Below the pieces are notes generated by a model. It saw only the letters and a list, made by a program, of their open reading frames with translations. It made no database searches and was not told where the DNA came from. Positions 10,167-39,595 of a stretch of 64,000 bases of DNA are shown here, piece after piece. This DNA comes from an uncultured Chloroflexia bacterium. GTDB lineage: Bacteria; Chloroflexota; Limnocylindria; Limnocylindrales; CSP1-4. The stretch lies in contig CAVYBU010000007.1 in assembly GCA_963766735.1 (NCBI GenBank), positions 384,001 to 448,000 of the forward strand. Direction: 5' to 3'. Each line of letters begins with the position of its first letter. The first letter of the stretch is position 1. A program made the position numbers and the translations under genes.

Positions 10167-11713
10167 GCGGGTCCTCCGGCACCGGGTTCGCGACCCGCGA
10201 GGTGAGCGACCGCGGCAATGAACGCGCGGCCCCGTGCCGCGTAGTCCTCGAACATGTCGAACGACGCGGCCGCCGGGCTCAGGAGCACGGTGGCGACGGT
10301 CCCCTCAGGAGATCCCGCCAGGGCATCGCGGGCCAGCTCGGCAGCGACCGCCACGGCCTCGTCCATGGACGCGGCCCGCCGGGTACGCGCCAGACCGGCC
10401 GCGCGGAGGAGGCCCTCGATCATCGGGCCGCTCTCGCCGATGAGCACGGCTGCGTGGGCGCTCACGGCGGCGACCCGCGCCATCCCGGAGAGGTCCACGC
10501 CCTTGTCGCGGCCACCAGCGATCAGCACCACCGGGGCCGGGAACGCCCGCAGCGCCGCCATCACCGCGTCGGGCTGCGTTCCCTGCGAGTCGTCGACGAA
10601 GCGGACACCGTCCAGGAGCGCCACGGGCTGGAGCCGGTGCTCCACGCCGGTGAAGGCGGCAGCCGAGCGCCGTATGGCATCTGGGGCAACGCCAAACAGC
10701 AGGCCCACGGCGATGGCCGCCAGCGCGTTGGACACGTTGTGGCGCCCTGGGATGCCCAGCTCGTCCACGGGCATGATCCCGCCGCCCGGACCGGTGGCTG
10801 CCGTCCCGCCGCCGGCCAGCGGCAGTCGCTCCACGGCAGCGGACACGATCCACCCCTCCACCACACCCAGACCGCCCGGCAGCGGCCGATCGTGCCGGTA
10901 CAGCACGATCGGGGCCGTCCCGAGCCCCGCGTAGCCGCCAACCACCGGGTCCTCGATGTTGAGCACGAGCGCGCCATCCGGGTCCACCAGCTCCGCCAGG
11001 CGCCGCTTGACCCGCCGATAGGCGTCCACGTTCCCATGCCGGTCCAGGTGATCCGACGTCACGTTGGTGTAGACCGCCACGGTGGTGCCGCGGGAGAGCG
11101 CCGGCAGCTGCAGCTCGGACAGCTCGACCACCACGCGGTGATCCGGGGTGAGCTCCGGCAGCCGCTCCACCAGCGGAATGCCGATGTTCCCGCCCAGGAG
11201 CGCCGGGTGGAGTGGGTCCGCAGACAGGATCGCGTGCGCGAGCGAGGACGTCGTGGTCTTGCCCTTGGTCCCCGTCACGCCGATTGTCGGGGCCGGGCAC
11301 AGACGCAGGAACAGGTCGGACTCCGAGACCAGCGGCGGAGCGCCGGGGTCGCCCGAGGCATGCGCGGCAACCAGAGCCTGCAGCTGCGAGCGCAGGCGCG
11401 GCTCCGTGGTCGGGTAGTCGGGGGTGATCGAAGGCGAGGTGGCAACGAGGTGGGCGCCGGCCCAGGTGGTCCCGGGGTCAATGCCCGGGCCCAGCCGCAG
11501 CGTCACGTCGCGCCCGGCCAGCTGTTCGATCGCACGCCCCAGGTCATCCTCGGGCCTGCCGTCGTACACGGTCACGCGGGCACCTGCGTCCGCGAAGAAC
11601 CGCGCCAGCGCTATCCCGCTGCGGGCCAGCCCCAGCACGGTGACCGGGCGCCCATCGAAGGCACCGGCACGAACGTCGGCCAGCGTCAGGGCGTCGAGGT
11701 CGAGATGGCGCAC
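10163..11713 (-). CDS. murD: UDP-N-acetylmuramoyl-L-alanine--D-glutamate ligase
   Basis: LGLARSG, GVTGTKGKTTT, DHLDRH, HRLQ, LSPAAASFDMF; GTG start inferred. Confidence 0.95.
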   Translation of the reverse strand: MRHLDLDALTLADVRAGAFDGRPVTVLGLARSGIALARFFADAGARVTVYDGRPEDDLGRAIEQLAGRDVTLRLGPGIDPGTTWAGAHLVATSPSITPDYPTTEPRLRSQLQALVAAHASGDPGAPPLVSESDLFLRLCPAPTIGVTGTKGKTTTSSLAHAILSADPLHPALLGGNIGIPLVERLPELTPDHRVVVELSELQLPALSRGTTVAVYTNVTSDHLDRHGNVDAYRRVKRRLAELVDPDGALVLNIEDPVVGGYAGLGTAPIVLYRHDRPLPGGLGVVEGWIVSAAVERLPLAGGGTAATGPGGGIMPVDELGIPGRHNVSNALAAIAVGLLFGVAPDAIRRSAAAFTGVEHRLQPVALLDGVRFVDDSQGTQPDAVMAALRAFPAPVVLIAGGRDKGVDLSGMARVAAVSAHAAVLIGESGPMIEGLLRAAGLARTRRAASMDEAVAVAAELARDALAGSPEGTVATVLLSPAAASFDMFEDYAARGRAFIAAVAHLAGREPGAGGPA

Positions 11714-31114: not shown

Positions 31115-32839
31115 TCAGACCGTGATCAGCTCGCGGTGGACGCCGAACGACGACCGCAGCCGGTCGGCGATCTCGCCCACGGTGGCGTAGGTCGCGACGG
31201 CCTCGATGATCGGCGGCATCAGGTTGCCGGTGCCCCGCGCCTCGTCCTCGAGGCGCCGGAGCGACGCCTCCCAGGCGGCCGGGTCCCGCCCGGCACGGAC
31301 ACGGAGGAGGCCTGCGACCTGGTCGCGCTCCCCATCGGGATCGATCCTCAGGAGCGCCGGGCGGGTGCCGGAATCCTCGTCCCTGAACTTGTTCACGCCG
31401 ACGACCACCCGGTCGGCTCGCTCGATCTCCCGCTGCACCCGGTAGGCGGACTCCTGGATCTGCCGCTGCTGGAAGCCACCCTCGATGGCGGCCAGGGTCC
31501 CGCCCATCGCGTCGATCTCGGCCAGGTACGCCAGGGCGGCGGCCTCGAGCTCGTTGGTCAATGACTCCACGAACCAGCTGCCGGCCAGCGGGTCGGGCGT
31601 CTCGGTGACACCTGCCTCGTGGGCGATGATCTGCTGAGTCCGGAGGGCCAGCCGGGCCAATTCGACCGTCGGCAGGGCCAGGGCCTCGTCCCGGGAGTTG
31701 GTGTGCAGGCTCTGGGTCCCGCCCAGCACCGCGGCCAGCGCCTGGATGGTGGTTCGGACCACGTTGTTGTCGATGGACTGGGCGGTCAGCGAGGAACCGG
31801 CGGTCTGGGTGTGGAAGCGGCACATCATCGATTTCGGGTTCCTGGCTCCGAAGCGCTCCTTCATGATCCGGGCCCACATCCGCCGGGCGGCCCGGAACTT
31901 GGCCACCTCCTCGAACAGCTCCGACCAGGCGGCGAAGAAGAACGAGAGTCGCGGGGCAAAATCGTCCACGTCCAGGCCCCTGGACACGGCCGCCTCCACG
32001 TAGGCGATCCCATCGGCGAGCGTGAAGGCCAGCTCCTGGGCCGCCGTGGCCCCCGCCTCCCGCATGTGGTAGCCGGAGATGCTGATCGTGTTCCAGCGCG
32101 GGAGCTCGCGTGAGGCGAACTCGAACACGTCGGTGACGAGGCGCATGGACGCACGGGGCGGGTAGATCCACGTTCCCCGGGCGATGTATTCCTTGAGGAT
32201 GTCGTTCTGGGTGGTGCCCGAGACCGCCCCGCGGGCGACTCCCTGCTTCTCGGCGGCCGCCACGTAGAGGGCAAGCAGGACCGGCGCCGTCGCGTTGATC
32301 GTCATGGACGTGCTGACCGTGCCCAGCGGGATCCCGGCGAACAGGGTCTCCATGTCCGCAAGCGACGAGATCGGCACGCCGACCCGACCCACCTCCCCCT
32401 CCGCCTCCGGGGCGTCGGAGTCGTAGCCCATCTGGGTGGGCAGGTCGAATGCCACCGACAAACCGGTCTGGCCCTGCTCGAGGAGGTACCGGAAGCGCTC
32501 GTTGGTCTCGGCGGCGGTCGCGAAGCCCGCGTACTGGCGCATGGTCCAGAAGCGGGAGCGGTACATCGTTGCCTGCACCCCCCGGGTGTATGGGTACTCG
32601 CCCGGGAGCCCCAGGTCCACGGCCGGATCGAGGTCCGGGATGTCGGCCTTCGTGTAGAGGTCGCGGATCGGGATCTGCGAGGCGGTGGCGAAGTCGGGGC
32701 TTCGCTCCGCGGACGAGGCAACGGCCCTCGCCCGGGTGGTGGCCCGCCAGCGCTCCACGGCAGGATCGCCCGCCGCCGTGGACCCGGGACCGGTGCGGTC
32801 TCCGGCGCCGTCCGGCTGCGCCTTCGCCTCGTCGTTCAC
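31115..32839 (-). CDS. Methylmalonyl-CoA mutase, substrate-binding subunit (split type, no B12-binding domain)
   Basis: [45 protein letters not shown]; no DxHxxG motif. Confidence 0.93.
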
Positions 32840-32850
32840 CCGGACCTCCG

Positions 32851-33531
32851 TCAGTCGATTACCAAGAGGACGTCGCCCACATCGATGTTCTGGCCAGGGG
32901 CAACGTTGACGCGGGAGATGGTGCCATCCCGCGGCGCCCGGAGCTCGTTCTGCATCTTCATGGCCTCGACGACGAGCAGATGCTCCCCGGCCGCGACCGC
33001 GTCACCGGCAGCCACGAAGACCGTCGCCACCTTGCCAGGGATGATTGCCTTGACCTGCAGCGGACCGCTCCGGGCGCCCGCAGCCCGTCCCCGCGAGGCA
33101 CGCTCGCGCAGGGCGGCGATGCGCTCGGACTCGGTCTCCACCTCGAACCGGAAGCCGTCCACCAGGACCTCCCGTCGGCGTGCCCCACCCTCCCCGGCCA
33201 CTGCCGGCTCCAGGACGACCCGCGTCACGCTGCCGTTCCCGGACAGCCGGAAGCGGCCGGATCCGAGCGACCGAAGGACGATGTCGGCAGGTGCGCCGTC
33301 CACCGTCACGGTGTGTCTTTGCGCACGGACACCCGCGCCGTCATCGCCCGCGGAGACGGGTCCGGCAGGCGACACGGTCAGGCCCGGCCCGTCCCTGTCC
33401 TGGCTCGCATCCGACATCCGAACGCGCACCCCACGCGGATCGACCGGGACGATGGGGAAGGTATCCACCCCGCCCGTGGCCCCGACCGTGCTGCGGGCCG
33501 CCACGCTGGTGGGGTCGGTCAGATCGGCCAT
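32851..33531 (-). CDS. Biotin carboxyl carrier protein
   Basis: EAMKM biotinylation motif in the C-terminal domain; start uncertain. Confidence 0.88.
33313..33332. repeat. Palindrome copy 1, candidate non-canonical parS (GTGTCTTTGCGCACGGACAC)
   Basis: Lies inside the BCCP gene, read there as CGT GCG CAA AGA CAC with rare codons. Confidence 0.6.
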
Positions 33532-35123
33532 CGGTCGACTCCCTGTGCCCGCCCACCGCGCCGCCAGCCGTGCCCGGCCCTGACCGGACCATCTCCGGTG
33601 CTCCCCAGCGATGCCGGCAACGCGACAGACGCCGGCAGCGTGGTCACCGAGTAGCCGGAGCCCATCGGCTCGTCGATTGCCGCCACGCCGGCGGCGAGCA
33701 GGGCCTTCCCGATCGCGGCGCTCCGGGCGGCCTCCCCGTCCCAGTTGGCATCGACCCAGCCGGTGGACAGGTCGCCTCGCCTGAACGCGTCGCTCCGCGC
33801 AACAGCACGGTGGAATGGCAGCGTGGTCTGCACCCCGCCAATCTCCGTCTCATCGAGCGCCCGACGCAACCGATCGATTGCCGCCTCGCGGTCGTGGGCG
33901 TGGACCATCAGCTTCGCGATCAGGTTGTCGTAGTCCGCCGGCACGCGATCGCCGGCCTCGATGTGCGTGTCCACGCGAATGCCCGGACCCGACGGCATGT
34001 TCCAGCGTCCGACGCGACCCGGTGTGGGCGCGAAGGAGCGAGCTGGGTCCTCGGCAGCGATCCGAACCTCGATCGCGTGGCTGGAGGGCAGGGCGGCTCG
34101 CTCCCCCGCGGCAACGACCTCAGGGCTGAGCGCCCCGCCTGCAGCGATCCGGAACTGCTCCCGAACGATGTCGACGCCGGACACGAGCTCCGTTACGCCG
34201 TGTTCGACCTGCAGGCGCGTGTTGACCTCCAGGAACCAGAACTTGCCGTCGGGACTGTAGAGGAACTCACACGTTGCGGCATTGCGCAGGCCGGCCGCTT
34301 CGCCCATGCGCACGGCCAGGCCATGGAGGTGTCGGCGCTGCTCTTCCGTGAGACCGGGGGCCGGGGCCTCTTCGACAAGCTTCTGGTGGCGCCGCTGGAG
34401 GGAGCAATCCCGCTCACCCAGCGCGACAACCCGGCCATGGGCGTCGGCCAGGAGCTGCACTTCGATGTGGCGGGCGGGAACAATCTCCCGCTCGAGATAG
34501 ACCGAGCCGTCGCCGAACGCCGATTGCGCCTCCTGCGAGCCCGCCAGGAGCGCGGCCGCGAGGTCCTCCTCGCCCGTCACTCGGCGCATGCCCCTGCCGC
34601 CGCCGCCCGCCGCTGCCTTGACCAGCAGCGGAAAGCCGATCTCGCGGGCCGCGACGACGATCGCATCCGCCTGGTCCGGGTGGTCAACCGGCACCGGATC
34701 GAGCGTTCCCGGAACGGAGGGAACCCCGATGCGCGCGGCAAGCCGCCGGGCATTGAGCTTGTCGCCCAGCACCTCGATCGCGCCGGACGCTGGACCCACG
34801 AACACGAGCCCGGCATCCTCGACAGCGCGAGCAAAGGCAGCTCGTTCGGCAAGGAACCCGTAACCGGGATGGACCGCCTCGGCTCCGGTGGACAACGCCG
34901 CCTCCACGACCGCGTCGATGCGCAGGTAGCTCTCCGACGGGGGCGGAGGACCCAGGTGGACGGCCAGATCGGCCAACCGGACATGCGCGGCCGATGCGTC
35001 GGCGTCGCTGTAGACCGCAACGGCTTCCATGCCCATCTCGTGACAGGCCCGGATGATGCGGACGGCGATCTCGCCCCGGTTGGCGACGAGAACCCGTCCG
35101 AAGGGCGGCGGCTCGGTGGTCAC
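33519..35123 (-). CDS. accC: Biotin carboxylase subunit of acyl-CoA carboxylase
   Basis: ANRGEIA, HPGYGFLAE, GGGGRGM, RDCSLQRRHQK, EVNTRLQVEH. Confidence 0.93.
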   Translation of the reverse strand: MTTEPPPFGRVLVANRGEIAVRIIRACHEMGMEAVAVYSDADASAAHVRLADLAVHLGPPPPSESYLRIDAVVEAALSTGAEAVHPGYGFLAERAAFARAVEDAGLVFVGPASGAIEVLGDKLNARRLAARIGVPSVPGTLDPVPVDHPDQADAIVVAAREIGFPLLVKAAAGGGGRGMRRVTGEEDLAAALLAGSQEAQSAFGDGSVYLEREIVPARHIEVQLLADAHGRVVALGERDCSLQRRHQKLVEEAPAPGLTEEQRRHLHGLAVRMGEAAGLRNAATCEFLYSPDGKFWFLEVNTRLQVEHGVTELVSGVDIVREQFRIAAGGALSPEVVAAGERAALPSSHAIEVRIAAEDPARSFAPTPGRVGRWNMPSGPGIRVDTHIEAGDRVPADYDNLIAKLMVHAHDREAAIDRLRRALDETEIGGVQTTLPFHRAVARSDAFRRGDLSTGWVDANWDGEAARSAAIGKALLAAGVAAIDEPMGSGYSVTTLPASVALPASLGSTGDGPVRAGHGWRRGGRAQGVDRWPI

Positions 35124-35143
35124 TGGTGCCTCCCGACGCGCGT

Positions 35144-35159
35144 GTCTTTGCGCAAAGAC
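35144..35159. repeat. Palindrome copy 2, perfect 16-mer GTCTTTGCGCAAAGAC
   Basis: Perfect inverted repeat in the pccB-accC spacer. Confidence 0.7.
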
Positions 35160-35171
35160 GGCATCCGCGTC

Positions 35172-36725
35172 TCAGAGGGGGATGTTTCCATGCTTCTTCC
35201 TGGGGTTCGTGTCTCGCTTGTCGGCAAGGATCTCCAGTGACCTGATGAGGCGTGGCCGCGTTTCGCGCGGAAGGATCACCTCGTCGATGTAGCCGCGCGC
35301 CGCGGCGGCATACGGACTCGAGAACTCCGACTCGTACTCGGCGACCAGGCGCTGCCGCTCCCCCGCCGCGTCATCGGCCCCCGCAATCGTGTCCTTGAAG
35401 ATGATGTTGACGGCACCTTCCGCCCCCATCACCGCAATTTCCGCCGTTGGCCAGGCGAAGTTCATGTCGCCCCGGATGTGCTTGCTGCTCATGACGTCGT
35501 AGGCACCGCCGTACGCCTTGCGGGTGATGACCGTGACCTTGGGGACGGTCGCCTCACAGTAGGCGTAGAGCAGCTTGGCACCGTGCTTGATGATCCCGCC
35601 ATGTTCCTGGCCGACCCCAGGCAGGAACCCCGGCACGTCCACGAAGGTGACGACGGGAACGTTGAACGCGTCGCAGGTCCGCACGAAGCGCGCGGCCTTG
35701 ACCGATGCGTCGATGTCCAGCGCTCCCGCGAGAACTGCCGGCTGCTGGGCGACGATGCCCACCGGTCGCCCGCCCAAACGGGCGAAGCCGATCAGGATGT
35801 TGGCGGCCCATGCCGGCTGCAGCTCGAAGAACTCGCCGTCGTCGAATACGTGTCGAAGGACCGCGTGCATGTCGTAGGGCCGCGACGATTCGTCGGGCAC
35901 CACGCTGTCGAGCTCCACGTCCATCCTGTCGGCGGGATCCGTCGACGCGACTCGCGGCGGATCCGCCAGGTTGTTCTGCGGCAGATGCGCAAGGAGCCGC
36001 CGGACGTGGTCCAGGGCCTCGGCCTCATCGCGGGCCGCGAGGTGTGCCACCCCGCTGACGCCGGTGTGGACGGCGGCGCCACCAAGTGCCTCCGAGTCAA
36101 CCTCCTCGTGGGTGACCGCCTTGACCACGTTCGGACCGGTGACGAACATGTAGCTCGTCCCCTCGACCATCACGGTGAAGTCCGTCATCGCCGGCGAGTA
36201 CACGGCACCACCCGCACACGGACCGAGGATCACCGAGATCTGCGGCACGACACCGGATGCCATCACGTTGCGCAGGAAGATCTCCGCATAGCCGCCCAGC
36301 GACGCCACGCCTTCCTGGATCCTCGCCCCGCCAGAATCGTTCAGACCGATGACGGGGGCTCCGACCTTCATGGCGAGGTCCATCACCTTGCAGATCTTCT
36401 CTGCATAGGCCTCGGACAGCGAGCCACCAAACACCGTGAAGTCCTGGCTGAAGACGAAGACGAGTCGGCCGTCAACGGTCCCGTGGCCGGTCACGACGCC
36501 GTCGCCCAGGAACAGTTGGCGGTCCAGGCCGAAGTCAGTGGCTCGGTGGGTCACAAACGCGTCGAGCTCGACGAAGGACCCCGCATCCAGCAACAGGTCG
36601 AGACGTTCGCGCGCGGTCAGCTTGCCCCAAGCGTGCTGTCGCTCCATGCGAACCGGTCCCCCGCCCAGGAGGGCCTCTGCCCGCATGCGCTCGAGGCGAG
36701 AGATACGATCCTCATTCTTCGTCAC
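35172..36725 (-). CDS. pccB: Propionyl-CoA carboxylase carboxyltransferase (beta) subunit
   Basis: [52 protein letters not shown]. Confidence 0.93.
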
Positions 36726-36755
36726 GTGGTGGGCTCCATCCGGTCAGGGGCTGTC

Positions 36756-36771
36756 GTCTTTGCGCAAGGAC
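36756..36771. repeat. Palindrome copy 3, GTCTTTGCGCAAGGAC
   Basis: In the divergent pccB/parA intergenic region; stem extends to GTCGTCTTTGCGCAAGGACGGC. Confidence 0.7.
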
Positions 36772-36848
36772 GGCGCGACACGACCCATCATAGGCTCACG
36801 GGCCGCCCGCGAAGAAGGGCTGAACGACAATGCATCGAATCCGGCTGG

Positions 36849-36890
36849 ATATCCACAGAAAGGTGCACAACCCGTCCGATCTGTGGACAA
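36849..36890. promoter_or_regulatory. Two DnaA-box-like 9-mers upstream of parA
   Basis: ATATCCACA (36849-36857) and TGTGGACAA = TTGTCCACA (36882-36890), each one mismatch from TTATCCACA. Confidence 0.55.
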
Positions 36891-36987
36891 CCTGGCGACG
36901 CGCCATTCGGAAGCGCGGAGTAGCATTCCCCCACTCGGACCCGCCGCCGGTCTCCGTCTCGCTTCTTCACTTCCCGAGGTGACGCTC

Positions 36988-37758
36988 TTGACACACGTGA
37001 TCGCCATCGCCAATCAGAAGGGCGGCGTGGGCAAGACGACGACCGCAATCAACCTTGCGGGCGCGCTCGCAGAACTTGGGCGAAGGGTCCTCCTCGTGGA
37101 CATGGACCCACAGGCGAACCTCACGGTCGGCGTCGGCATCAACCTCAACACCGTGGAACGCTCGATGGCCGACGTTCTCGCCGATGGTCGCTCGACGCTC
37201 ACAGAGGCGATCCTCCCAACGGAGACGGCCGGCATCGACGTCGCACCGGCGCACATCGACCTCGCGAGCACCGAGGGTGAGCTGTTCACCGCCCTGGGCC
37301 GCGAGCAGATCCTCAGCGAGGCGATGCGCGACGCGATCGATCCCTACGACTACGTACTGATCGACTGCCCGCCCAACCTGGGCCTGCTGACGGTCAACGG
37401 TCTCGTCGCCGCGGACAGCGTGATCATTCCGGTCCAGACGCAGTTCTACGCGATGAAGGGCCTCAACAACCTGGTCAAGGTCATCAACGCGATCCGGTTG
37501 AAGTTGAACCGGGACCTGCGGATCCTCGGCCTGCTGCCCACCTTCTACGACGGCCGCACCAACCTTGCCAAGGACATGCTGGACGAGCTGCGCGTGGTGG
37601 GTGATCACCATGTCTTCAACACCATCATCCGCCAGAGCGTGAAGCTGGGCGAGGCGCCCCTCGCGGGGCGGCCAATCACCGCCTATGCCAGCTCGTCCGA
37701 AGCAGCCCGTACATATCGTGAGCTCGCCCGGGAGGTGATCGAACTTGGCCAGGACTGA
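36988..37758 (+). CDS. parA: ParA/Soj family ATPase
   Basis: NQKGGVGKTT deviant Walker A, VDMDPQANL, IDCPPNLG; TTG start after GAGGT. Confidence 0.95.
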   Translation: MTHVIAIANQKGGVGKTTTAINLAGALAELGRRVLLVDMDPQANLTVGVGINLNTVERSMADVLADGRSTLTEAILPTETAGIDVAPAHIDLASTEGELFTALGREQILSEAMRDAIDPYDYVLIDCPPNLGLLTVNGLVAADSVIIPVQTQFYAMKGLNNLVKVINAIRLKLNRDLRILGLLPTFYDGRTNLAKDMLDELRVVGDHHVFNTIIRQSVKLGEAPLAGRPITAYASSSEAARTYRELAREVIELGQD

Positions 37759-38755
37759 TTTCCGCGCCGCCGCCGCCCGTCGACTCTCCGAGGAGCGGGA
37801 GCTTCCGCCTGCAATCGTGAGCCTCCTGTCACCGGACATGAACCGCCGCTCGACCGGCGTCAAGGTGATCGAGGTTGATCACATCGACTCCAATCCGGAG
37901 CAGCCACGCCTCGCCTTCGACGAGGCGACCCTCGAGGAGCTGGCAGCCTCGATCCGCGAGCATGGCGTCCTCCAGCCGATCCTCGTCCGACCGCGGGACA
38001 ACGGCCGCTACCAGTTGATCGCCGGGGAACGCCGCTGGCGCGCCTCGCGGATCGCCGGCATGGCCACGATCCCCGCCCTGGTCGAGGACATCGACGACGA
38101 CACCGCCCTCGAGATCTCGATCATCGAGAACCTCCAGCGGGAAGACATCTCCGTCCTCGACGAGGCCGCGATGTACGACCGGATGATCCGGGACCACGGT
38201 TACAGCATTCGCAAGCTCGCGGACAAGCTGGGCAAGGACAAGGGCTATCTCGAGAACCGGCTCCGGCTGGCTGACGCGCCGCCCGAGGTTCGGGAGCTCG
38301 TGTCTTTGCGCAAGGACACCCTGTCGCACGCCTACGAGCTCATGAAGGTCACCGACCCCCGGAAGCGCAGGAAGCTCGCCGATCAGGTCGCCCGCAACGA
38401 GCTCTCGCTGGTGAAGCTGCGCGAACGCATCGAGGGCCGGCGAGCCCGGGTCGCCAGCGCTGAGGAGCCGCAGGAGACCGGGATCGAGGCCGCCGCATCG
38501 CGTGTGGACGATGAGACGGCCGACTGGTCGGAGCATCGAGGCGCGGCCGAGCCGATCCGTGACGACAGCCTCGTGGCCGCCAAGCAGCAGCTCAACGAGG
38601 CGGTGGAGGATCTCCTGGACGTCATCCGGAACCCGGACGTCCTGGACGCCATCGGCGCTGTCGACCGCACCAACCTGGCCAAGTACCTGACGATCGCCAA
38701 GCTCCGGCTTGAGAACGCGATCGCGGTGATCCGCTCCGGGGACACGGACCGCTAG
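37745..38755 (+). CDS. parB: ParB/Spo0J family CTPase with atypical HTH specificity residues
   Basis: NPEQPR, GVLQPILV, AGERRWRA, IIENLQREDI; HTH reads GKDKGYLENRLRL. Confidence 0.94.
   Translation: MARTDFRAAAARRLSEERELPPAIVSLLSPDMNRRSTGVKVIEVDHIDSNPEQPRLAFDEATLEELAASIREHGVLQPILVRPRDNGRYQLIAGERRWRASRIAGMATIPALVEDIDDDTALEISIIENLQREDISVLDEAAMYDRMIRDHGYSIRKLADKLGKDKGYLENRLRLADAPPEVRELVSLRKDTLSHAYELMKVTDPRKRRKLADQVARNELSLVKLRERIEGRRARVASAEEPQETGIEAAASRVDDETADWSEHRGAAEPIRDDSLVAAKQQLNEAVEDLLDVIRNPDVLDAIGAVDRTNLAKYLTIAKLRLENAIAVIRSGDTDR
38300..38319. repeat. Palindrome copy 4 inside parB, GTGTCTTTGCGCAAGGACAC
   Basis: Encodes V-S-L-R-K-D-T using the rare codons TCT and TTG. Confidence 0.7.
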
Positions 38756-38781
38756 GTTCTCCCCGCCCCGTCCAGCAACCG

Positions 38782-38810
38782 CGAAGCCGGCGCCATTGGC
38801 GCCGGCTTCG
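38782..38810. terminator. Hairpin between convergent genes, probable bidirectional terminator
   Basis: CGAAGCCGGCGCCA-T-TGGCGCCGGCTTCG. Confidence 0.65.
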
Positions 38811-38848
38811 TCGTCACCGGGTGAGTTGCCCCCGTCGGGGCACCGGGA

Positions 38849-39446
38849 TCAGCGGGATGCCTTGCCGTGGGCGGCCCGGGCGGCGGCGCCCTTCGCCTTG
38901 CCCTCTGCAGACTTGCCTGCGGCCTTTGCGGCCTTCTCCGCAGCCTTTGCGGCCTTGTCGGCGGCCTTGTCGGCGGCCTTGTGCGGCCTTCGGGTTGGCA
39001 GCGCCACAGAACTCCGGCGTGACGGTCTCCCAGTCAAAGCCGACGACGCTCACGTCCAGGTGAGCAACGCACGAGACGAAGGCGCCGTGATTGGCAAAGC
39101 CCACTGGCGTCGCCATCCGGGCGGCAGTCGACACGAGGGCGCCGTGGGTGTCCTTCGGTTCCGTGCTCGCGGTCTCGTCCGCCTCGGGCGCCTTGGGAGC
39201 CTCGCTCGGCTCGGCGGTCTCGGTCGCCTCCGGGGTCTCGGTCGGCTCGGCGGTCTCGGTCGCCTCCGGGGTCTCGGTCGGCTCGGCGGTCTCGGTCGCC
39301 TCCGGGGTCTCGGTCGCCTCCGCGGCGATCTGGGTCGGCGACGAGACGCGGGCCTGGGGGGCGGCCGCGAAGGCGACCGTGGCGGAGATGGCCAGCACCG
39401 CGAGGGCGACGGCAAGGCTGCGGGAGCGGCGGAGAAGATCAGTCAT
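38849..39446 (-). CDS. Secreted low-complexity protein (TETPEA repeats, two HGAxVS motifs, Lys/Ala tail) with apparent frameshift near 38983
   Basis: Signal peptide ending AFA; the natural KAADKAAK tail lies in a different frame (ORF 38849..39037). Confidence 0.7.
39206..39321. repeat. Coding tandem repeat, 3 x 36 bp (PTETPEATETAE)
   Basis: Exact 36-bp units without spacers. Confidence 0.9.
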
Positions 39447-39595
39447 GGGCGCGAGAACCTCGGCTTGTGGGACGGTTGCATAGAGGGTAACGGGCACGGA
39501 CGGGGGTCTGTTAGGGGTACTTCCGGTCCCGGTGCACCCTACCCTGGGGATTGCCTACAGGCACCACTCCTGATGACCCGGACGGCAAAAAGGTT

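Follow-up and report, generated by a model that had tools for sequence, protein, structure and literature searches.

What are four copies of a non-canonical palindrome doing around a parA-parB operon that sits among carboxylase genes? The question arises from a 64-kb window (G000:C7:384001-448000, the whole stretch of DNA analysed here) of the core chromosome of a soil bacterium of the Limnocylindria (Chloroflexota), known from a metagenome-assembled genome (3.62 Mb in 35 contigs, ~70% G+C), in which the palindrome, with the consensus YGTCTTTGCGCAAAGACR, occurs four times within 5 kb around the operon. The original prediction, made from the letters of this window, took the palindromes to be the loading sites of the ParB encoded there, with a sequence unlike the known chromosomal consensus. 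On comparative grounds (confinement to the locus, conservation at synonymous positions and independence from propionate genes) the loading-site proposal is supported, and we put the probability that the four palindromes are cognate ParB loading sites at roughly 0.78. One correction is needed, in that the ParB of the window is not the main ParB of the chromosome. Contig C3 of the same assembly carries another ParB and ParA, with two canonical parS sites (TGTTTCACGTGCAACA) just upstream and dnaA 41 kb off. The system in the window is thus a second one, which we call ParAB2, with candidate sites parS2, and its ParB is a second paralogue beside the canonical ParB1. The best explanation of the data is that ParB2 belongs to a second complete ParABS embedded in the main Limnocylindria chromosome.

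The palindromes and the genes that they lie in or between are as follows, in window coordinates; the gene assignments around the palindromes made in the original prediction hold when examined with Pfam.

31115-32839, minus strand, methylmalonyl-CoA mutase gene (Pfam)
32851-33531, minus strand, biotin-carrier protein (BCCP) gene (Pfam)
33314..33331, strand not applicable, candidate parS2 copy 1 (tGTCTTTGCGCACGGACa), inside the variable linker of the BCCP gene
33519-35123, minus strand, biotin carboxylase gene (Pfam)
35143..35160, strand not applicable, candidate parS2 copy 2 (perfect), between the carboxyltransferase stop and the biotin-carboxylase start
35172-36725, minus strand, carboxyltransferase gene (Pfam)
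36755..36772, strand not applicable, candidate parS2 copy 3, between the divergent carboxyltransferase and parA2 genes, 31 nt upstream of the start of the former
36976..37758 (start uncertain: 36976 or 36994), plus strand, parA2, Soj-type deviant Walker-A ATPase (Pfam AAA_31, CbiA)
37745..38755, plus strand, parB2, ParB/Noc-family CTPase clamp with a helix-turn-helix (HTH) and a non-canonical DNA-contact set (Pfam ParB_N, HTH_ParB)
38301..38318, strand not applicable, candidate parS2 copy 4, inside parB2, codons V188-D193 (VSLRKD)

All four palindromes were found where the prediction had placed them, and the GT/AC flanks that it described for the first and fourth copies are present. A search with the 16-mer GTCTTTGCGCAAAGAC recovers them at 33315 (2 mismatches), 35144 (perfect), 36756 (1) and 38302 (1). 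The earlier impression that there is no other copy in the window is borne out, since no fifth match appears there at three or fewer mismatches (0.07 expected; none of 100 shuffles gave four), and so is the lack of a canonical parS, of which the window holds none at the same threshold. At two or fewer mismatches the motif is restricted to the parAB2 locus in both genomes scanned from end to end: nothing beyond the four copies turns up in the whole source assembly (3,619,335 bp, 35 contigs), and the complete chromosome G001 (the record of L018, 3,624,741 bp) has four copies, all within 3,361,110-3,366,199, and none outside its parABS2 locus. The motif has the layout GTCTT-TGCGCA-AAGAC, that is, a T-rich arm and a 6-bp core with a central CG. 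Among the 272 sites in 80 related loci, the base flanking the 16-mer on the 5' side is C or T in every case and that on the 3' side is A or G in 271; because these positions played no part in selecting the sites, the element is best described as an 18-bp palindrome.

The 80 loci come from a scan of 185,579 species genomes, which returned 409 relatives; the best 80 were used (ParB 70-97% identical, 1,366,985 bp). Their 272 sites at two or fewer mismatches fall almost entirely into four fixed slots (261), with the remaining 11 within ~8.5 kb of the parB anchor. The slot inside parB holds a site in 77 of the 80 loci that cover it, the carboxyltransferase/parA intergenic slot in 69 of 75, the carboxyltransferase/carboxylase junction in 68 of 72 and the BCCP slot in 46 of 66. 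The sole locus without a match at this threshold has four sites at 3-4 mismatches. Four families of the class, f1 to f4, can be compared. Loci of f3, whose ParB2 is 52-57% identical by tblastn, retain full synteny plus three of the slots: three sites are present in 12 of 14 loci and two in the other two, and the copy-2 slot is filled in all 14 at three or fewer mismatches.

Comparison of codons across these loci shows the intragenic copies to be kept by selection on the DNA, by way of rare codons. The parB site is written with GTG (79/79), TCT or TCC (54 and 25 of 79), TTG (71/73), CGC (77/80) and GAC (79/79), and neighbouring parB codons for the same amino acids vary freely. The six-codon site window has a synonymous-entropy ratio of 0.29 against a gene median of 0.75 and ranks third among 158 windows, the two lower ones consisting of common codons; where the site is absent, the peptide at this place changes as well (AQRY, AERS). 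In BCCP, the codons GTC CTT GCG CAA AGA are invariant in ~42 of 66 open reading frames (ORFs), within a linker that is otherwise gapped and variable. The motif is therefore conserved at synonymous positions in the orthologues of both genes, the check that the original prediction had proposed, and its remark that TCT TTG in parB and CAA AGA in BCCP are rare choices here agrees with codon usage in the 27 other ORFs of the window (9,827 codons), where TCT makes up 4.5% of Ser, TTG 3.1% of Leu, CAA 5.7% of Gln and AGA 1.7% of Arg codons.

The proteins fit the same account. ParA2 carries the motif NQKGGVGKTT, matches Pfam AAA_31 (2.9e-63) and CbiA, and is 48% identical to the origin-side ParA1. ParB2 matches ParB_N (2e-36) and HTH_ParB (3.8e-17), shows GERRWRA and ENLQRE boxes in its translation and is 38% identical to ParB1; its best matches in the PDB are Noc 7ng0 (2e-40) and Caulobacter ParB 6t1f (2e-38). 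The two genes overlap by 14 nt. Of what defines a ParABS system, the features that a sequence can show are found here: a Walker-A ParA, a ParB with its boxes and HTH, and a parA-parB operon with palindromes in or near it.

The expected DNA-binding specificity of ParB2 is a different matter. Jalal et al. (2020; PMC7383237) give R173, T179, A184 and G201 as the residues of Caulobacter ParB that set parS-type specificity, QKKR as their equivalent in Noc, and Q162, G170, K171, S172, N178 and R204 as conserved ParB contacts. Mapped by hand onto the Caulobacter numbering (alignment and motif counting), the contact set of ParB2 is D172 K173 R179 D184 S201 Y204 and differs from canonical ParB at all four specificity residues. 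Lysine and serine replace the R173 and G201 of canonical ParB, and K, R, D and S stand where Noc has Q173, K179, K184 and R201; ParA2 is moreover encoded next to ParB2. By contrast with ParB2, ParB1 has parS-type residues (R173, T179, G201, R204) and E184, with canonical parS beside it. K173, R179, S201 and Y204 are kept in the ParB2 of all four families, and among the best 150 representatives from a search of 1.84 billion proteins the ParB2-type rows share the contact signature, which gives way abruptly to S-R...G...R/K in generic ParBs. No relative of ParB2 above 40% identity is among the matches listed from the plasmid database, and a recent plasmid origin of ParB2 was rejected since those listed matches are at most 40% identical.

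Outside the four families there is a sister clade on four metagenome contigs, whose ParB is 47-53% identical to ParB2 by tblastn and, in the representative P0057, has an intermediate signature (S172, K173, R179, Q184, Y204). These contigs carry parA-parB with accessory-type genes as neighbours and no carboxylase genes. GTATTT-N4-AAATAC palindromes lie inside parB and/or upstream of parA in three of the four loci. L188 has one, with the core GCGC, inside parB (L188:5466); L189 has four (one with one mismatch), with the core ATAT, three of them upstream of parA and one in parB (L189:10813); and L190 has two, with the core CCAG, inside parB (8147 and 8219), the site and its peptide being duplicated 72 nt apart. 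The fourth contig ends within parB. The exact pattern GTATTT-N4-AAATAC occurs in none of 263 other loci examined. All intragenic copies of the clade use a single reading frame and encode [SP]-Y-[LF]-x-K-Y-D in the parB linker; since L189 has the same DNA in intergenic positions, the conserved unit is the DNA. The putative centromere sites of the sister clade thus appear to have been built into parB as extra linker residues. A maximum-likelihood tree has a 100/100 branch between the generic ParBs, ParB1 among them, and ParB2 with the sister clade. ParB2 lies on one side of a 94/89 branch and the sister clade on one side of a 100/99 branch; the tree is unrooted, and the row of L130, which is faulty (43% of columns filled, a very long branch), was disregarded. 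The simplest account is one ParB lineage with its own palindrome family, GT[C/A]TTT-N4-AAA[G/T]AC.

How general is the second system? In a sample of 401 Chloroflexota, each of the 46 genomes of the class gives two ParB matches, one of ParB2 type (47-100% identity) and one of ParB1 type, and most genomes outside the class have one. The motif at one or fewer mismatches is present in 23 of 23 f1 genomes and the source genome, in 14 of 16 f3 genomes (the other two have it at 2-3 mismatches), and in none of the four f2 and two f4 genomes. Among the other Chloroflexota it occurs in 10 of 355 genomes (nine with one site, one with two), as against 9 genomes for a reversed control pattern. The 355 background genomes include five unpublished ones (G146, G273, G039, G345 and G174), and no claim about the class rests on them. 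As a separate observation, all five sampled genomes of family f50 genus g120 (G172, G240, G304, G312 and G320) have two ParB-family matches, at 38-40% identity to ParB2 among the matches listed, and second paralogues of ParB may recur across the phylum.

The f4 family separates the motif from the propionate genes. In its two genera, parA2-parB2 lies apart from the carboxylase genes, and an intact epimerase-mutase-carboxylase operon, with a carboxyltransferase 67-69% identical, is found on another contig, where 14-18 kb contain no site at four or fewer mismatches. Each f4 genome has exactly one site at two or fewer mismatches, with the pyrimidine and purine flanks, at the same place in both genera, with the 3' end of a helicase-nuclease gene on one side and that of an MFS transporter gene on the other. 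This site shares a contig with parB2 in G326, at a distance of 46.8 kb. Tracking with the propionate genes, which the original prediction had named as grounds for abandoning the ParB assignment, is therefore not seen, and in f4 the motif is not placed at a promoter. Two side observations concern the surroundings of parA2 in this family. A tRNA-like stretch, recognised by eye, abuts parA2 upstream (L131 ~11500-11700, in G318). After it, in G318, comes a 17-nt inverted repeat (GTGTCGCGCAAGGGACA, a 3-nt gap and the complement) that loosely resembles half of the motif and may be a trace of parAB2 relocation.

Several observations weigh against the palindromes being ParB2 loading sites. Two of the four copies in the window lie just upstream of start codons, which is operator-like. 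In f1 and f3 the sites always adjoin carboxylase genes, so the uncoupling rests on the two f4 genomes and the sister clade. No f4 site lies closer than 10 kb to parAB2, and in G318 site and operon are on different contigs. The main result against a one-to-one link comes from f2, four streamlined genomes of 1.1-1.4 Mb that are 91-93% complete (L132-L135: G310, G270, G134 and G358). Here an orphan parB2, with K173/R179/S201/Y204 kept, directly adjoins the methylmalonyl-CoA mutase gene; none of the four genomes yielded a parA2, no parB2 locus among them has the carboxylase genes (a genome-wide search of three of the genomes did not find the carboxyltransferase either), and there are no sites at two or fewer mismatches and no credible site. 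ParB2 can therefore persist without the motif. Finally, a centromere ~0.4 Mb from the terminus, the position described below, is without established mechanistic precedent. Matches to a degenerate pattern in f2 were read as chance, being at control level, intragenic and devoid of the pyrimidine and purine flanks, and blind palindrome discovery in the f2 and f4 loci gave only codon-like, GC-rich palindromes and, in f2, also a loose GATC...GATC group.

These points bear on the alternative that fares best, namely that ParB2 does bind the palindromes but acts as a KorB- or Noc-like CTP clamp that regulates parAB2 and the carboxylase genes or organises the local DNA, with ParA2 positioning something else. 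Copies 2 and 3 precede the starts of the biotin-carboxylase and carboxyltransferase genes by 20-46 nt, a long distance separates the locus from the origin, the f2 genomes imply some ParA-independent role for a ParB2 that has neither ParA2 nor sites, and similarity to Noc in the PDB is as strong as that to ParB. A purely regulatory clamp does not, however, account for a full Soj-type ParA2 translationally coupled to ParB2 in f1, f3 and f4, nor for sites in f4 and the sister clade that have no carboxylase genes nearby. The f4 site lies between gene ends and the copies within parB and BCCP are not operator-like, and the Pfam match of ParB2 to KorB falls under the cut-off (20.2 versus 22.3 bits). 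We regard this alternative as unlikely; alongside a centromere role, ParB2 may still have a regulatory or organising one at the two promoter-proximal copies.

Where on the chromosome does the system lie? The complete chromosome of 3.625 Mb has parABS2 at 3.361-3.366 Mb, including ParB2 at 3.3657 Mb, and ParB1 at 1.0287 Mb, with its two canonical parS sites at 1.0275-1.0277 Mb and dnaA at 1.072 Mb. GC skew, sampled coarsely in 40 windows of 20 kb, is positive over ~1.10-2.91 Mb and negative over the rest of the chromosome (difference 0.0155, t = 3.9). This is the best split with two breakpoints and was equalled by 12 of 300 permutations. The coarse sampled skew fits an origin in the dnaA/parS1 region and a terminus at ~2.9-3.0 Mb. 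On this map parABS2 lies ~0.36-0.46 Mb past the terminus on the left replichore and ~1.29 Mb (35.5% of the circle) from parS1; in contrast to canonical chromosomal ParABS, it is not origin-proximal. On contigs C7 and C3 of the source genome, GC skew is too weak for origin or terminus to be located. Another family has two large contigs on which ParB1 and ParB2 are 794 kb apart of 2.24 Mb and 778 kb apart of ~2.1 Mb, and with such similar distances the relative position looks conserved. At the origin side, the two canonical parS upstream of parA1 (L002:2824-2839 and 2895-2910; G000:C3:129385 and 129456) are 71 nt apart, and both are preceded by the same 8 nt (GGTCGCGA), which points to a duplicated unit longer than the 16-mer.

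Beside the candidate parS2 sites lies a further conserved element, recognised by the DnaA-box consensus:

36849..36890 (G000:C7:420849-420890), strand not applicable, convergent DnaA-box pair (ATATCCACA, 24-nt spacer, TGTGGACAA) upstream of parA2

All of 77 f1 and 14 f3 loci have the reverse box, and 71 of the 77 f1 loci also have the forward box, with a spacer of 24-26 nt (24 or 25 nt in 70). In all 14 f3 loci the copy-3 site is 17-19 bp from a box. In the whole source genome a single DnaA box is perfect and only three pairs of boxes lie within 60 bp, the parA2 pair among them; a second like pair, with a 22-nt spacer, is just upstream of rsmG/gidB on the dnaA contig (G000:C3:22314-22353). A cluster of at least three boxes, as in an obvious oriC, was found nowhere in this genome. 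The pairs at parA2 and rsmG hint that parAB2 expression or loading might be coupled to DnaA. As a side observation, two weak DnaA-family AAA matches in the complete chromosome (G001:C1:1270622-1270945 and 3344547-3344870) have the same score (34.7 bits, 310-aa frames) and look like copies of one insertion-sequence helper ATPase; one of them is 17 kb from the parABS2 locus.

The locus could also be a second origin, or a timing site like crtS or datA, left from an ancient chromid fusion. The conserved convergent box pair next to the sites, the accessory-type gene contexts of the sister clade and the 100/100 branch that sets ParB2 and that clade off from generic chromosomal ParBs would all suit such a history. 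Set against them, the boxes are two only, the window showed no replication-initiator or plasmid gene, and the skew of the complete chromosome fits a single origin near dnaA, with no local cumulative-skew minimum at parABS2 (3.36 Mb), within the coarseness of 40 samples. We consider this very improbable.

To the remaining proposal, that the palindrome is an operator for a regulator of propionyl-CoA carboxylase and methylmalonyl-CoA genes and lies near parAB incidentally, we give hardly any credence: the interleaving of f1 and f3 sites with carboxylase genes, two of them just upstream of start codons, speaks for it, yet it is largely refuted by the siteless orthologous operon of f4 and the f4 site between convergent, unrelated genes, and it is further opposed by a conserved copy in mid-parB, the absence of any regulator gene or further DNA-binding gene seen in the conserved locus, a motif frequency at control level in other Chloroflexota, and sister-clade palindromes that go with parAB and no carboxylase genes.

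The loading-site reading thus leads back to what a second ParABS might do. We suggest that ParB2 dimers would recognise the 18-bp palindrome, chiefly through the GTCTTT arms, close as CTP clamps and spread over the ~5-kb locus, and that ParA2 would move or position the resulting complex independently of ParB1 and parS1. The terminus-proximal part of the left replichore would thereby have its own centromere. At the two promoter-proximal copies, ParB2 may damp transcription of parAB2 and the neighbouring carboxylase genes, and the box pair may tie expression or loading to DnaA. On the comparative evidence, we give about even odds to the idea that ParA2 moves the complex as a functioning second centromere; in its favour are an intact, coupled parA2 that f1, f3 and f4 have retained, and the f2 genomes, which have lost both parA2 and the sites. 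A still broader proposal, possible but doubtful, is that Limnocylindria are permanently two-centromered: an orthogonal ParABS ~0.4 Mb from the terminus would have come from an absorbed plasmid- or chromid-type replicon that lost its origin, been kept through the history of the class and been wired to DnaA, so that a late-replicating part of the chromosome is actively driven and timed.

The rest of the window is in keeping with a core chromosome and includes mraZ-mraW-PBP, succinate dehydrogenase, isocitrate dehydrogenase, sucCD, the mutase and carboxylase genes, UbiA and a sigma factor. A probable gene lies between parB2 and UbiA at 38814-39554 on the minus strand, a 246-aa ORF (GC3 0.82) with an N-terminal hydrophobic segment and low-complexity repeats, which has no Pfam match and is only weakly conserved in relatives. 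A sigma-70 promoter scan of 33000-39000 gave no promoter-like sites and three terminator-like matches, within shuffle expectation, and Rfam gave no match on 36600-37100.

These results have implications for how bacterial centromeres are viewed. ParABS is the general centromere system of bacteria; single chromosomes are known with one system and a conserved parS near the origin, and other parS specificities are known from secondary replicons. Here, a widespread soil and freshwater class keeps a second, sequence-orthogonal ParABS in its main chromosome near the terminus. If functional, the system would be a natural model of two centromeres coexisting on one bacterial chromosome, would raise the question of what a terminus-side centromere is for, and would offer a test of how the partition system of an absorbed replicon becomes domesticated. 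It would also provide a new ParB/parS pair, with graded variants (GTCTTT and GTATTT arms, differing cores), for labelling DNA loci, and a natural series for the reprogramming of ParB specificity beyond ParB and Noc.

Among known systems, Soj/Spo0J-parS of Bacillus subtilis and ParB-parS of Caulobacter (6t1f) share with parABS2 a short Soj-type ParA, a parA-parB operon and a ParB built from an N-terminal CTPase domain (GERRxRA), an HTH and a C-terminal domain. In chromosomal ParABS, too, 16-bp palindromes cluster at the operon and one lies within parB. In Bacillus subtilis, a parS site lies inside spo0J. The differences are in sequence and place. Candidate parS2 shares 3 of 8 half-site positions with canonical parS (TGTTTCAC); systems that use canonical parS (TGTTNCACGTGAAACA) make R/T/A/G and S/R contacts, as against K173/R179/D184/S201 and D172/Y204 in ParB2; and canonical ParABS is origin-proximal, whereas parABS2 is ~1.3 Mb from the origin in a genome that also carries a canonical system. 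Noc (PDB 7ng0, 7nfu, 6y93), like ParB2, is a ParB paralogue on the chromosome of ParB, with specificity reprogrammed at positions 173, 179, 184 and 201. Noc works without a dedicated ParA and from sites dispersed along the chromosome, and its residues at these positions are QKKR; ParB2 has KRDS there and is paired with ParA2, and its candidate sites form a single tight cluster. KorB-OB of RK2 (PDB 8qa8) resembles the ParB2 system as a ParB-family CTPase with palindromes at promoters that also serves in partition, but its similarity to ParB2 is weak (PDB 1.5e-16, and the sub-threshold Pfam match given above), and KorB is plasmid-borne with many operators.

The closest likeness in the site itself is to the Bsr systems. 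In the format that PMC5450999 describes for chromosomal and Bsr parS, a palindrome of 16 bp has a T-rich 5' end and, in its middle, a 6-bp core made up of 2C/2G/1A/1T around a central CG; the parS2 motif fits this format. The parS of Burkholderia cenocepacia chromosome 2, gTTTATGCGCATAAAc (PMC7022226 Table 1), is identical to parS2 at 12 of 16 positions and has the same TGCGCA core. Of the original proposal of a new specificity, the departure from canonical parS therefore stands, and the sequence as such has a precedent. Bsr parS is also orthogonal to canonical parS in the same cell, but Bsr systems belong to separate replicons of Betaproteobacteria, beside their own origins, whereas parABS2 is inside a single main chromosome of Chloroflexota. 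Burkholderia records among the 25 plasmid-database matches listed for ParB2 are ~30% identical and KorB-like. In the literature searched, no 16-, 14- or 12-mer of the motif was found, nor a class-wide, origin-distal second ParABS on a single chromosome; the cases found there were multi-replicon genomes and fusions.

Two partition systems with different centromeres on one chromosome are nevertheless known from such fusions. Fused chromosomes with two partition systems are reported from Vibrio cholerae, and dicentric fused chromosomes with both origins active from natural isolates of Agrobacterium tumefaciens (bioRxiv 10.1101/2025.02.23.639760). As described, these fusions are recent, strain-level and have two active origins; in Limnocylindria, the second system is found in 46 of 46 sampled genomes of the class, with no second initiator seen in the window and no second-origin signature in the coarse skew of the complete chromosome. 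The newer aspects are accordingly the class-wide second centromere candidate near the terminus and the DnaA-box pair adjacent to it, and the place and persistence of the system outweigh the bare fact of a non-canonical parS.

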